A stretch of 11,198 nt of DNA, taken from IMG/VR virus record IMGVR_UViG_2734482782_000002, positions 1-11,198 of that record. One strand, 5' to 3'. Source of the stretch: a virus (taxonomy: Duplodnaviria; Heunggongvirae; Uroviricota; Caudoviricetes). Shown here one piece after another: positions 7,039 to 9,746 of the stretch. The position numbers and the translations under genes were made by a program. Below the pieces are notes generated by a model. It saw only the letters and a program-made list of their open reading frames with translations. It was not told the origin of the DNA and did not search any database. How positions within the stretch are numbered: the stretch's first letter is position 1; each line of letters begins with the position of its first letter.

Positions 7039-7202
7039 TTTGAAACCTCCGTTAAGTCAATCCAGCGTTCTTTAACGCCATCGACTTTTAATACATGTAC
7101 TCCCTCCTTCCATAACCCCCTTTGTATCCGTTTGTTAACGGCTTCTACCGTTTCCCCCGCGTCCCTGCAGTATGTAGAAAGGGGTACACAGTCAAGACTC
7201 AT
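6993..7202 (-). CDS. excisionase-like small DNA-binding protein
   Basis: ORF track 6993..7253. Likely start is the internal ATG at 7202 (AGGAGG 6 nt upstream), giving 69 aa. Its 3' end overlaps the int start by 46 nt, the typical xis-int arrangement. The call rests on position and size; no family match verified. Confidence 0.55.
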   Translation of the reverse strand: MSLDCVPLSTYCRDAGETVEAVNKRIQRGLWKEGVHVLKVDGVKERWIDLTEVSKWARKNKDHYLSQEE

Positions 7203-7491
7203 GGCTGACCTCCTGCCCGAAAGCCAGGGCATCTTCCAATTCATTAGCGGCATAAATCAGGGCGTTGTGATGCGCGCGAAAACCACCATCAAGTTCGCGA
7301 GCAGCTCTGTCGCGCAAGATGTCGATCGCAGCCTGATAGTCATTCTGGTAATCGGCCGAACTGGCCGGCAGCTCCGCCAGCACCATCAACATGTTTTCCG
7401 GGTCGATGGGAATGGTGGCGAGCCCGAGCTCTTTGGCCTCCGCTGCTAAACGGGTCCAGCGTTCAATAATTCCAGTGGTACCTTTTTTCAT
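7192..7491 (-). CDS. hypothetical phage early protein (99 aa)
   Basis: ORF with GAGG upstream of ATG 7491. Its stop overlaps the xis start by 11 nt (translational coupling). Function not recognised. Confidence 0.6.
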   Translation of the reverse strand: MKKGTTGIIERWTRLAAEAKELGLATIPIDPENMLMVLAELPASSADYQNDYQAAIDILRDRAARELDGGFRAHHNALIYAANELEDALAFGQEVSHES

Positions 7492-7499
7492 GGCATACC

Positions 7500-7595
7500 T
7501 CAGAAACCTATCAAAAATTTATACTCAATCAGCGCGCCGAAAACGACGGCCACCAGCAATAGGCCAAACAGCATAGAGAGGAAGAAATACTTCAT
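7500..7595 (-). CDS. 31-aa hydrophobic single-helix peptide (MKYFFLSMLFGLLLVAVVFGALIEYKFLIGF)
   Basis: Not in the ORF track (too short); translated by hand from the minus strand. Its ATG overlaps the TGA of the upstream gene (ATGA at 7592-7595), GAGG lies 7 nt upstream, and it fills the gap between two flanking genes exactly. Predicted single transmembrane helix. Confidence 0.45.
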   Translation of the reverse strand: MKYFFLSMLFGLLLVAVVFGALIEYKFLIGF

Positions 7596-7816
7596 CGTGA
7601 TGCCTCACGAAAAACAGCTCTGTATGCACGCAGCATGTCCCGTGACTTGCCGGATAAAACTGTCCTCAGGAAGAACATCCCGCTACGGGTTGCCACGATG
7701 CCGGGTGTGTGTAGCAGCGTGAAATCTACCACTCTGCTATGTTTTCGGAACTCAAACAGAGTGCTTGTGATAACGATGTTCGCCACGGCGCCATAGTCCT
7801 GATGTTGAATTTTCAT
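7592..7816 (-). CDS. hypothetical phage early protein (74 aa)
   Basis: ATGA start/stop overlap with the upstream gene at 7813-7816; AAGGA 6 nt upstream of the ATG. Confidence 0.55.
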   Translation of the reverse strand: MKIQHQDYGAVANIVITSTLFEFRKHSRVVDFTLLHTPGIVATRSGMFFLRTVLSGKSRDMLRAYRAVFREASR

Positions 7817-8034
7817 TTTCTGTCCTTCAGTTTGCTGTATCGTTCATGGCTCATTACTTCCCAGTTCTGGCTGCCGTCTCGGGACAGCAGTCGCCAGCGG
7901 CGATTAACCCTCAGGCTCAGATTTCCGGAGCCGTGCATTCGGCAGGGATGAATTCGCTTGGCTCTGAACTGGCGGAGTACATGGACCGCCTGCAGGTGTA
8001 CCCACTCAGGTATTCGTATCGCTGTCAGGGCCAT
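7813..8034 (-). CDS. hypothetical basic protein (73 aa)
   Basis: ORF track 7813..8157. Preferred start is the internal ATG at 8034, preceded by AGGAGAGAAGGACA. The longer version would overlap the next gene extensively in another frame. Confidence 0.45.
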   Translation of the reverse strand: MALTAIRIPEWVHLQAVHVLRQFRAKRIHPCRMHGSGNLSLRVNRRWRLLSRDGSQNWEVMSHERYSKLKDRK

Positions 8035-8218
8035 TGTCCTTCTCTCCTGCAGGTGGGGTGATCGTGTAACCGGCGCGTTCAGCCATCCATAAAAAAGTCT
8101 CCAGCGATGCTGTAACCTCTCCGTTCTGAACCGGGCGCGCGTGGATAACTTTCCCATTCTCGATTGTCAGCACGATATTTACTGGTTCGTGCGTGATAAT
8201 TGGTGTCTGATCACTCAT
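8006..8218 (-). CDS. hypothetical phage early protein (70 aa)
   Basis: ORF track 8006..8275. Preferred start ATG 8218 (MSDQTPII...) with GGAGA 6 nt upstream, immediately after the stop of the upstream gene. Confidence 0.5.
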   Translation of the reverse strand: MSDQTPIITHEPVNIVLTIENGKVIHARPVQNGEVTASLETFLWMAERAGYTITPPAGEKDNGPDSDTNT

Positions 8219-8576
8219 GGCTTGTCTCCGCTGTGACTGATTTTTGTTTCTTGGCAAACTCGACCAGCTCAGCAATGAGATCGTCGATTAATGCCTTTCC
8301 GCTTTCTGTCAGGAACTCACCGCTGCCATTCACATCTACGGCGTTGCTGTAAATTCCTCTGATGGCTTTTACGCCGTCGACATTCCCGTATTCACTGAGA
8401 GCCAGCTTTTCGAATCGTCTCAACAGACCATCAAGCAGTATTTCTGTTAATTCGACTGTGTTTATTCCACCCTTAGGCATATTAATAATGATGCAGGTGC
8501 TTCCGGTTTTACGCTGGTGGCGAAATAACGCAGCCTTTAAAATTCTTCGGCGATACGTATTGATTAAGTTATTCAC
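8211..8576 (-). CDS. hypothetical phage early protein (about 121 aa)
   Basis: ORF track 8211..8597 (GTG). An alternative GTG at 8576 has GAGGA 8 nt upstream and overlaps the stop of the preceding gene. Start uncertain; function not recognised. Confidence 0.5.
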   Translation of the reverse strand: MNNLINTYRRRILKAALFRHQRKTGSTCIIINMPKGGINTVELTEILLDGLLRRFEKLALSEYGNVDGVKAIRGIYSNAVDVNGSGEFLTESGKALIDDLIAELVEFAKKQKSVTAETSHE

Positions 8577-8760
8577 GTCGCTTTTCCTCTTCTTCACACC
8601 AGTACAATAAATTTGCCGAAGCGTTAAGAGCCATTCCTAGTAATGATTCCTTTTGATTTTTGCTTAACTCATTATTGCTTGTTACTATTTCTAGGATGGT
8701 GTTAAGGTTCTCCGCCTCTAAAAGGATTTCATCTATCCCTGCTGTTTTGGGGTTCCACAT
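8569..8760 (-). CDS. hypothetical small acidic protein (63 aa)
   Basis: ATG 8760 preceded by GGGAG with a 7-nt spacer. AT-rich coding sequence. Confidence 0.5.
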   Translation of the reverse strand: MWNPKTAGIDEILLEAENLNTILEIVTSNNELSKNQKESLLGMALNASANLLYWCEEEEKRRE

Positions 8761-8867
8761 TTACAATCTCCCATATGCTTTTTTAAGATAAAGTCGAGCG
8801 ATTACCTCATAACCACACGCCGCATAAAGGCATGCTGTTCTATATGCCGTTTTATCTTTGATGAAAG

Positions 8868-9254
8868 TCATATGAAGTGCCTCACAGCCAAAGAGGCGAC
8901 AACCCTTCCGTGTATACGCATGTCTTTTTGCTCATCCGCATTAAGCGTGAAAGTTTGGTAATGTAGATTGTCAGAAATAATCTTCAGCGCCCCGTCCGGA
9001 AAGGGTTCTATTCGCTTGATGAACAGGCAGTTACGGCCAAAAACATCGACCGTAAAAACATAGATGCCGGGTGTAAAAGCGCGCCCTCCACAATCAACGA
9101 AAGCTACAACCTCACAGGGTTCGATAGTCGGCTGCATTGAATCACCTTCCATCCTGCAGCTCTTAACTCTGTTTCCAAAATCATTAATATTGTCAGAGCC
9201 GAACAGCATTTGTGGTGCTTTAATTGGCTCGTTAAAAGAAAGTGAATTTTGCAT
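8868..9254 (-). CDS. standalone S24 (LexA/UmuD-like) peptidase-domain protein without an HTH domain
   Basis: ORF track 8868..9260; start probably the ATG at 9254 (GAGGAA 8 nt upstream). Contains GDSMQPT (Ser nucleophile motif) and a downstream ...FIKRIEP... (Lys of the Ser/Lys dyad), spaced as in the LexA/UmuD/cI C-terminal fold. No N-terminal DNA-binding domain. Confidence 0.6.
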   Translation of the reverse strand: MQNSLSFNEPIKAPQMLFGSDNINDFGNRVKSCRMEGDSMQPTIEPCEVVAFVDCGGRAFTPGIYVFTVDVFGRNCLFIKRIEPFPDGALKIISDNLHYQTFTLNADEQKDMRIHGRVVASLAVRHFI

Positions 9255-9315
9255 TTTCATTTCCTCGGGGTGAATTTGGTCACACCATTTAAGGTGTTTT
9301 ATTAATTATTTTTAT

Positions 9316-9534
9316 TTATAATGATTTAATTTCGAAGTTATTTATTTGTTCGTTTACTTCTTCTAATGTTTTTACAACTAAAGTAATTAATGCGTGTTCT
9401 CTTATTTCTTCCTCGGATGTCATTTTTTCAAGGAGTAACCATAATGAAGATGAACAACAAGTTATATCGTGCGCCCAACTCATGACCATAGAGCTTGTTT
9501 CATCTTTATTGAGAACTACAGTATCAGTTATCAT
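9316..9534 (-). CDS. hypothetical phage early protein (72 aa)
   Basis: ATGA overlap with the stop of the upstream gene (9531-9534); GGAGA 7 nt upstream. Very AT-rich 3' half. Confidence 0.5.
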   Translation of the reverse strand: MITDTVVLNKDETSSMVMSWAHDITCCSSSLWLLLEKMTSEEEIREHALITLVVKTLEEVNEQINNFEIKSL

Positions 9535-9746
9535 TGTTTGTTCTCCGGCCAGTCATGCCCGATTTCGCGATTTATAACTGAAAGATTTTTCTTTAATTGG
9601 TTGATGCAAATTTGAATGAGGGCTGCTGGCTTATAGCCAGTATCTGGATCAGATTCGGCATATTCAAGCACGTTTACCACGCGATCAATATCCATAGCTA
9701 GCTTGTGGATGGGACCATTTTCAGATACCAATTGTTGAGTGCTCAT
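9531..9746 (-). CDS. hypothetical protein, first gene of the leftward early operon (71 aa)
   Basis: ATG 9746 preceded by GGAGCAGGAAG; lies about 30 nt downstream of the predicted leftward promoter and operator. Confidence 0.55.
   Translation of the reverse strand: MSTQQLVSENGPIHKLAMDIDRVVNVLEYAESDPDTGYKPAALIQICINQLKKNLSVINREIGHDWPENKQ

Follow-up and report, generated by a model that had tools for sequence, protein, structure and literature searches.

Positions 1 to 11,198 of the IMG/VR virus record IMGVR_UViG_2734482782_000002 (Caudoviricetes) make up the window, which is the whole stretch of 11,198 nucleotides (nt) analysed here. Our subject is the block at 7192-9746, which lies between the excisionase gene xis and a promoter resembling the leftward promoter (PL) of lambdoid phages. 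An earlier note on this DNA had described the block as a compact, translationally coupled module of small leftward genes and had proposed it as a cassette of accessory, exclusion or defence genes. We found 11 consecutive minus-strand genes, named g1 to g11 from the promoter end (Table 1), that fill 97% of the block (coding fraction 0.97) and encode proteins of 31-128 amino acids (aa). Among them is a toxin-like gene, g8, which the note had not recognised, and it lies in a set of genes (g3-g8) that is conserved across many prophages.

A packed leftward operon between PL and xis

A Shine-Dalgarno-like (SD-like) motif is found within 20 nt of all 11 starts. Most of the junctions are overlaps; from g1 to g11 they are -4, +61, -4, 0, -8, -8, -29, -4, -4 and +8 nt, and the end of g11 overlaps the start of xis by 11 nt (-11 nt). 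This agrees with the compact and coupled module that had been described. The flanks, namely xis, the integrase gene int, the cI-type repressor gene, cro and the PL-like promoter, were also identified as the note had them, and so were a standalone S24 peptidase-domain protein (g3) and a 31-aa transmembrane peptide (g10). Gene starts were revised from homologues and from the annotation of a close genome. The start of g3 is at 9254, giving a protein of 128 aa instead of 130 aa, and its relatives are all about 128 aa. The start of the frame first read as 128 aa (g6) is most likely the GTG at 8576, giving 121 aa, which is also the length of its closest annotated relative. The mechanically called frames of 114 aa and 89 aa correspond to the 73-aa g8 (ATG at 8034) and the 70-aa g7 (ATG at 8218), respectively. 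An additional 36-aa gene, g4, is real and highly conserved.

All 11 open reading frames (ORFs) are under purifying selection, with median ratios of nonsynonymous to synonymous substitution (dN/dS) of 0.08-0.29 against 3-89 distinct variants. Together with PHROG family matches at E ≤ 2e-11 for 8 of the 11, this indicates that the ORFs of the block are beyond chance. The families to which g5, g6, g7, g9 and g11 belong are PHROGs of unknown function. For g1, g2, g4 and g10, no Pfam or PHROG family was found at significant E-values, but that these short ORFs are chance reading frames is essentially excluded on sequence grounds by dN/dS values within the same range over 15-55 distinct variants, by the presence of g4 in 85 of 87 loci at 48-100% aa identity, and by the start/stop coupling and SD-like motifs.

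The PL-like promoter lies just downstream of the terminator-like hairpin that ends cI. In a simple consensus scan, no minus-strand promoter-like or terminator-like site was found within the block, and no promoter was found upstream of the g7-g8 pair on the minus strand from PL to xis. The -10 region of PL overlaps a 21-nt element that recurs, inverted and with a 90% match, in the cI-cro intergenic region. As read from the sequence, this is the OL/OR layout expected for a lambdoid immunity region. Since there is no internal minus-strand promoter-like site and PL overlaps the operator-like site, the block should be silent in a repressed lysogen. The simplest reading would be a single PL transcript that runs through g1-g11 into xis and int and is repressed in the lysogen. 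The early-left (PL) placement given in the note is supported. No RNA family was found inside the block in an Rfam scan. Read on the plus strand, the hairpin in the g2-g3 gap has a terminator-like score; in the operon orientation it lacks a T-run, and it could serve in antitermination or processing.

Early-left operons of lambda, P22 and HK97-like phages occupy the same place between PL/OL and xis-int. Like the block, they are leftward, polycistronic and tightly packed with small genes, are controlled by a cI-type repressor, and exchange segments in mosaic fashion. They differ in gene content, since the block has the set S24 / g4 / g5 / g6 / (g7) / ParE_like in place of N, cIII, kil, gam/bet/exo, erf, abc and sieB. 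As the note had remarked for the usual early-left functions, no homologue of N, cIII, Kil, Gam, Bet/Exo, Erf, abc or SieB was detected among the 11 proteins in Pfam or PHROGs. The only annotated PHROG categories matched were "CI-like repressor" (g3) and, weakly, "anti-repressor" (g7). By its arrangement, the block is best described as the usual lambdoid early-left operon, and its recognisable components all fall into existing Pfam or PHROG families.

Table 1. Features of the block and its flanks, in window positions, from the promoter side to xis
Feature	Position	Strand	Remarks
PL-like sigma-70 promoter, TTGACG-17-TATTGT	9778-9806	-	sole minus-strand promoter-like site between cI and xis
Operator-like 21-nt element over -10 of PL	9775-9795		inverted repeat at 10648-10668, cI-cro intergenic region, 90% match
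Intrinsic terminator-like hairpin and T-run right after cI stop	9895-9912	-	separates cI transcript from PL
cI-type repressor (HTH_3 + Peptidase_S24), presumed PL regulator	9918-10622	-	context
g1, 71 aa, acidic, no family	9531-9746	-	dN/dS 0.08
g2, 72 aa, 31% GC, no family, ATGA-coupled to g1	9316-9534	-	linked to immunity type
Hairpin ACACC-N6-GGTGT, perfect 5 bp, in 61-nt g2-g3 gap	9282-9297		only sizeable intergenic gap of the operon
g3, 128-aa standalone S24 (LexA/cI/UmuD-type) peptidase domain	8868-9254	-	PF00717, phrog_6201
g4, 36-aa basic peptide, ATGA-coupled to g3	8761-8871	-	dN/dS 0.10; 85/87 loci, including loci without g3
g5, 63 aa, acidic, probably helical	8569-8760	-	phrog_8959; divergent members fused to g6 in some phages
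g6, 121 aa, GTG start	8211-8576	-	phrog_1737, E 4.7e-53
g7, 70 aa, acidic, isoelectric point (pI) 4.5	8006-8218	-	phrog_340; 29-nt overlap with g8 start
g8, 73 aa, pI 11.7, miniature RelE/ParE-superfamily fold (predicted)	7813-8034	-	Pfam ParE_like
g9, 74 aa, basic, pI 11.2, ATGA-coupled to g8	7592-7816	-	phrog_1001; variably present; Fels-1 homologue 78% identical
g10, 31-aa hydrophobic peptide, one predicted membrane helix, no family	7500-7595	-	grand average of hydropathy (GRAVY) 1.82; ATGA-coupled to g9
g11, 99 aa, acidic	7192-7491	-	phrog_36586, E 2e-46; goes with this xis/int type
xis (excisionase), 69 aa, next gene of leftward unit	6993-7202	-	phrog_2917, E 2.1e-40; context

A conserved core in a mosaic operon

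With g8 as bait, 263 IMG/VR contigs with a close relative were found, and 80 of these plus 7 reference loci were counted (n = 87). A second set was collected with g6 as bait (loci at ≥77% identity). The loci in both sets were thus chosen for their closeness to g8 or g6, and some contigs are common to the two. Among the 87 loci, g6 was present in 86, g4 in 85, g3 in 66, g7 in 59, g10 in 49, g11 in 40, g9 in 38, g5 in 25 (plus divergent family members), g2 in 20 and g1 in 18. Conversely, with g6 as bait, g8 was present in 79 of the 79 loci with room downstream. The linkage of the outer genes differs from that of the core. Where g1 is present at ≥80% identity the same cI/cro is found in 17/17 loci, the corresponding figure for g2 is 13/13, and g11 goes with the same xis in 33/34. 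The occurrence of g3 is independent of both the immunity and the xis/int modules; it is found with several unrelated cI types and is missing from about a third of the loci that keep g4, g6 and g8. Hundreds of contigs of enterobacterial phages and prophages, with differing immunity and integration modules, share the central g3-g8 run, and a Citrobacter braakii prophage keeps the whole operon at 81-100% protein identity.

Because g1 and g2 are linked to cI and g11 to xis, while g3 is independent and g3-g8 is conserved, the block is by synteny and linkage a three-part mosaic and not a variable cargo island: g1-g2 travel with the immunity module and g10-g11 with the xis/int module, on either side of the conserved g3-g8 set, and g9 is variable. 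This goes against the single variable cargo cassette of the note, which had itself named conservation of the whole block as core genes, with no phenotype on expression, as a finding that would speak against its view. The comparison with related prophages comes near to that for g3-g8, which is syntenic across different cI and int types, whereas g1-g2 and g9-g11 do vary with the neighbouring module. Hallmarks of a moron or cargo insertion were likewise lacking, as no internal minus-strand promoter or terminator was found in the block and patchiness was confined to g1-g2 and g9-g11.

The early-left region of the Salmonella prophage Fels-1 (STM0898.4n to STM0896.1n) is a partial counterpart. Downstream of its repressor it has, in the same order, relatives of g4 (60% identity), g5 (40%), g6 (48%), g7 (47% over part of the protein) and g9 (78%), all annotated as hypothetical. 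Unlike the block, it has neither g8 nor a standalone S24 gene. Homologues of g3, g6 or g8 that are 58-94% identical also appear in the Aeromonas phage AsXd-1 (L005), the Elizabethkingia phage EKP1 (H25), a Chitinophaga metagenome-assembled genome (L172) and Chryseobacterium sp. (L176); the host labels or assemblies of these four are probably contaminated or mis-assigned.

The proteins of the conserved core

The g8 protein has the predicted fold of RelE/ParE-superfamily type II toxins (RelE, YoeB, YafQ, HigB, ParE and PrpT; PF24732 ParE_like), in which an N-terminal strand and one or more helices pack on a three- to four-stranded antiparallel sheet. Its conserved core, RWRLLS...W...SHE.Y, is kept in distant phage homologues. 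In Sortsne, ECML-606-1 and the Serratia phage OS31, the motif RWRLLS-D-G-W-[ST]H-Y persists at 37-44% identity. The strictly conserved Arg, His and Tyr positions suggest that g8 may be active. A comparison by eye places the motif opposite the ...HRLVY...RYHY end of YoeB, where the catalytic Arg, His and Tyr lie, and we treat this as a lead only. The lytic jumbo phages RaK2 and fHe-Yen9-04 encode ParE_like proteins predicted to adopt this fold (template modelling (TM) scores 0.77-0.83), and relatives are present in several non-lambdoid phages, and in Sortsne and other phages among unrelated neighbours. Compared with the classic toxins, g8 is only 73 aa long and has one N-terminal helix where they have two. 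It also lies in a repressor-controlled phage early operon without a promoter of its own, and the upstream g6 and g7 belong to no known antitoxin family, have no recognisable DNA-binding domain and are not universal. Intact g8 homologues without a gene call were seen in the Citrobacter freundii genome CP056850.1 (L002, 7256-7474) and in phage phi467 (L004, 3501-3719), which suggests that this small ParE_like gene is under-annotated in public genomes.

In close relatives, g8 has a constant partner upstream, g6. Natural in-frame g6-g8 fusions were found in three protein clusters with three different junctions (P0283, P0284 and P0288), and several fusions of the g5 family to g6 exist, including NCBI-annotated Klebsiella proteins (P0249, P0267, P0269, P0292, P0280 and P0262). 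These fusions suggest that g5, g6 and g8 act together. In contrast to g6, g7 is not constant. In about a quarter of the loci it is absent and g6 directly abuts g8, which indicates that g7 is an optional insert between the two. With its pI of 4.5 next to the pI of 11.7 of g8, and with overlapping frames, the g7-g8 pair looks like a type II toxin-antitoxin pair in sequence. That g7 is an obligatory antitoxin of g8 was ruled out as a universal rule, since g8 is intact where g7 is missing. In P0337, a Rha-family regulator, the g7 domain is located C-terminally, behind a Phage_pRha domain, and g7 matches the C-terminal part of the "anti-repressor" family phrog_4792. A ParB-like protein upstream of the OS31 homologue of g8 was considered as a carrier of the g7 domain, and the domain was absent; the proteins upstream of the g8 homologues in Sortsne and ECML-606-1 were considered as g6 homologues and were not homologous. 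Two very long predicted proteins, P0310 (801 aa) and P0321 (3857 aa), contain 7-10 g7-like stretches, along with incoherent Pfam matches. They are probably artefactual gene models, although a repeat-domain protein could be an alternative.

The S24 domain of g3 is recognised at PF00717 with E 9.7e-9 (35.4 bits against a cut-off of 23.3), and the protein belongs to phrog_6201 (E 1.8e-37), labelled "CI-like repressor". Ser39 (GDSMQP) and Lys80 (FIKR) are invariant in 20 sequences that are 59-88% identical to the window protein. About 30 variable N-terminal residues precede the S24 core; no helix-turn-helix (HTH) match was found in g3, nor any N-terminal DNA-binding domain. In LexA and UmuD, the cleavage site lies about 35 residues before the catalytic Ser. 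Neither an Ala-Gly nor a Cys-Gly for self-cleavage is conserved ahead of the Ser in the 20 homologues, and a Phe-Gly at 18-19, about 20 residues before the Ser, is present in most but not all members. UmuD and the HumD protein of phage P1 have the same architecture as g3 (a short N-terminal arm, an S24 core, a Ser/Lys dyad and no HTH). In contrast to them, g3 has no specific sequence similarity to E. coli UmuD, no conserved Cys-Gly/Ala-Gly site and no umuC-like partner nearby; the window contains no polymerase gene. That g3 is a UmuD/HumD orthologue is not supported (probability 0.2 when its family was aligned with E. coli UmuD by hhalign, and no UmuD NCBIfam match). We rejected the idea that g3 is a duplicate of the C-terminal domain of the prophage's own cI and poisons repressor dimers, as the two show no similarity and unrelated cI types are found alongside g3. 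The latter also makes a specific heterodimer of g3 with a cognate repressor unlikely. No meaningful matches were obtained when the PDB was searched with the sequences of g3 and g8 and with family profiles for g3, g8 and g6.

Beyond the operon, a partial tmRNA match (RF00023, E 5e-7, below the gathering score) was observed at 5707-5773 (minus strand), directly adjacent to int. It resembles an att repeat derived from the 3' end of ssrA, and the prophage probably sits at an ssrA-derived attachment site next to ypjA. A ypjA/ehaD-type autotransporter adhesin frame occupies 2157-5546 (plus strand) in three ORFs (2157-3149, 3089-5191 and 5220-5546), and this splitting points to a pseudogene; ypjA is intact, and adjoins a related prophage, in the closest complete E. 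coli genome. At the left end of the window, 1-1373 (plus strand) contains two ORFs of 204 and 247 aa with a GC content of 31-36%, a composition clearly foreign to the rest. At 10851-11198 (plus strand), an ORF overlaps the end of cro and runs off the window at the position of a cII-like gene.

A candidate role in early lytic growth

We favour a function of the block in lytic growth, through host shut-off, counter-defence or control of the commitment to lysis, over protection of the lysogen, and we give this reading a probability of about 0.45. It is preferred because of the PL and operator anatomy, the lack of an internal promoter-like site, the lack of any PADLOC defence match among the 10 proteins scanned and the presence of ParE_like proteins in lytic phages. 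As judged from the promoter and operator anatomy, the PL-driven, translationally coupled polycistronic unit, continuing into xis and int, would be switched on only upon loss of the cI repressor, by induction or infection. The biochemical activities that follow are inferred. Made early in lytic growth, g8 would work with the upstream-encoded g6, often with g5 and optionally with the acidic g7. Its target would be one typical of the fold, i.e. ribosome-bound mRNA or, less likely, DNA gyrase, and in this way g8 would help to shut the host off or would interfere with toxin-antitoxin-type defences of the host. In this scheme g6 and g7 would bind and temper g8, and g3 would act on another protein and not on DNA, either as an active Ser/Lys protease or by binding RecA filaments. 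Within the lytic reading, we consider the more specific proposal, in which g8 is a ribosome-dependent RNase restrained by g6 and g7, less likely than not.

Several points weigh against this reading. Weak, activator-dependent or non-sigma-70 internal promoters could escape a consensus scan and give expression in the lysogen. When the natural fusion P0288 was modelled with AlphaFold2, the fold of g6 was left unpredicted (predicted local distance difference test (pLDDT) about 40, mostly helical), and no confident interface between g6 and g8 was obtained. The absence of g7 from about a quarter of the loci, together with distant g8 homologues that have neither g6 nor g7, indicates that g8 has no universal partner. 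Fels-1 and one Enterobacter prophage retain g4-g6 without g8. The co-occurrence counts overstate independence, since the loci are close to the bait and some contigs are duplicated. None of the 11 proteins has a known activity, and no literature was found on these families (ParE-like early phage genes, PF24732 or standalone S24 proteins).

A regulatory or commitment module is a rather unlikely alternative. Here, g3 and g7 would modulate repressors or the SOS response after induction, by titrating RecA filaments or through binding or cleavage of LexA-type repressors, whether these belong to the host or to rival prophages, and g8 would be a non-toxic structural relative of the toxins. The UmuD-like architecture of g3 with its invariant dyad, the PHROG label of its family, and the association of the g7 domain with Phage_pRha and with the C-terminus of phrog_4792 are consistent with such a role, and HumD of phage P1 is a precedent for a phage-borne UmuD'-like protein. 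Nevertheless, beyond the Pfam domain g3 has no detectable similarity to E. coli UmuD or to the C-terminal domain of its own cI, it accompanies several unrelated cI types, and about a third of the loci with g4, g6 and g8 do without it. In addition, the strictly conserved Arg, His and Tyr argue against a non-toxic g8.

A reading in the sense of the earlier note, that the block, or g6-g7-g8 with the membrane peptide g10, is a toxin-antitoxin (TA), abortive-infection (Abi) or superinfection-exclusion cassette expressed by the lysogen and protecting it against other phages, is improbable in our estimate. Genes of this kind are often found between PL and xis in lambdoid phages, with lambda rex and P22 sieB as known cases; a RelE/ParE-fold protein after a small acidic protein with overlapping frames is the classic type II layout, and g10 is indeed in the block. 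In contrast, no PADLOC-DB v2 defence model matched at E ≤ 0.1 for 10 of the 11 proteins (g10 was outside the scan), and the genes should be off in the lysogen given the promoter and operator anatomy. The putative antitoxin g7 is dispensable, homologues of g8 occur in lytic phages, and the g3-g8 set is a conserved core, unlike variable cargo. The profile searches of each protein left part of the note standing, in that no known lambdoid recombination or regulatory family was found; the toxin-like match of g8 is an addition to it.

Of similarly low probability is that the conserved set, and especially g8, serves to neutralise TA or Abi systems of the host. In that case g8 may be a toxin mimic that soaks up or stabilises antitoxins, or the set may degrade defence transcripts. 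This proposal overlaps with the lytic reading that we favour. Early expression is predicted from the place of the set downstream of PL, and accessory anti-defence genes typically show the kind of distribution seen for the g8 family, which is found in both temperate and lytic phages next to differing genes; on the other hand, no similarity to described anti-defence proteins was found in the libraries searched, and sequence data alone do not distinguish counter-defence from host takeover.

A further form of the lytic reading is speculative, and we consider it improbable as a whole. It holds that g3-g4-g5-g6-(g7)-g8 forms a previously undescribed early "takeover switch" of the phage, in which g8, as a miniature RelE/ParE-fold nuclease, would be held by g5, g6 and sometimes g7 and released or tuned by the S24 protease g3, perhaps triggered by RecA filaments, so that host translation or replication would be shut down only after lytic commitment. 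If true, it would mean that a toxin-antitoxin-like module serves phage offence and not host defence.

Genes for host takeover and counter-defence are known to come from the early-left regions of temperate phages. The set described here is compact, combining a miniature RelE/ParE-type protein with a lone S24 protease and three or four further small proteins, and it recurs in hundreds of prophages of Enterobacteriaceae (Escherichia, Citrobacter, Enterobacter, Klebsiella and Salmonella). Natural fusions (g6-g8 and g5-g6) single out the proteins that are candidates for joint study. Should the proposal lead nowhere, the analysis still guards against listing the block as a defence island. Should g8 prove to be an active toxin that the phage uses in lytic growth, it would clearly exemplify the recruitment of a toxin-antitoxin fold for offence.

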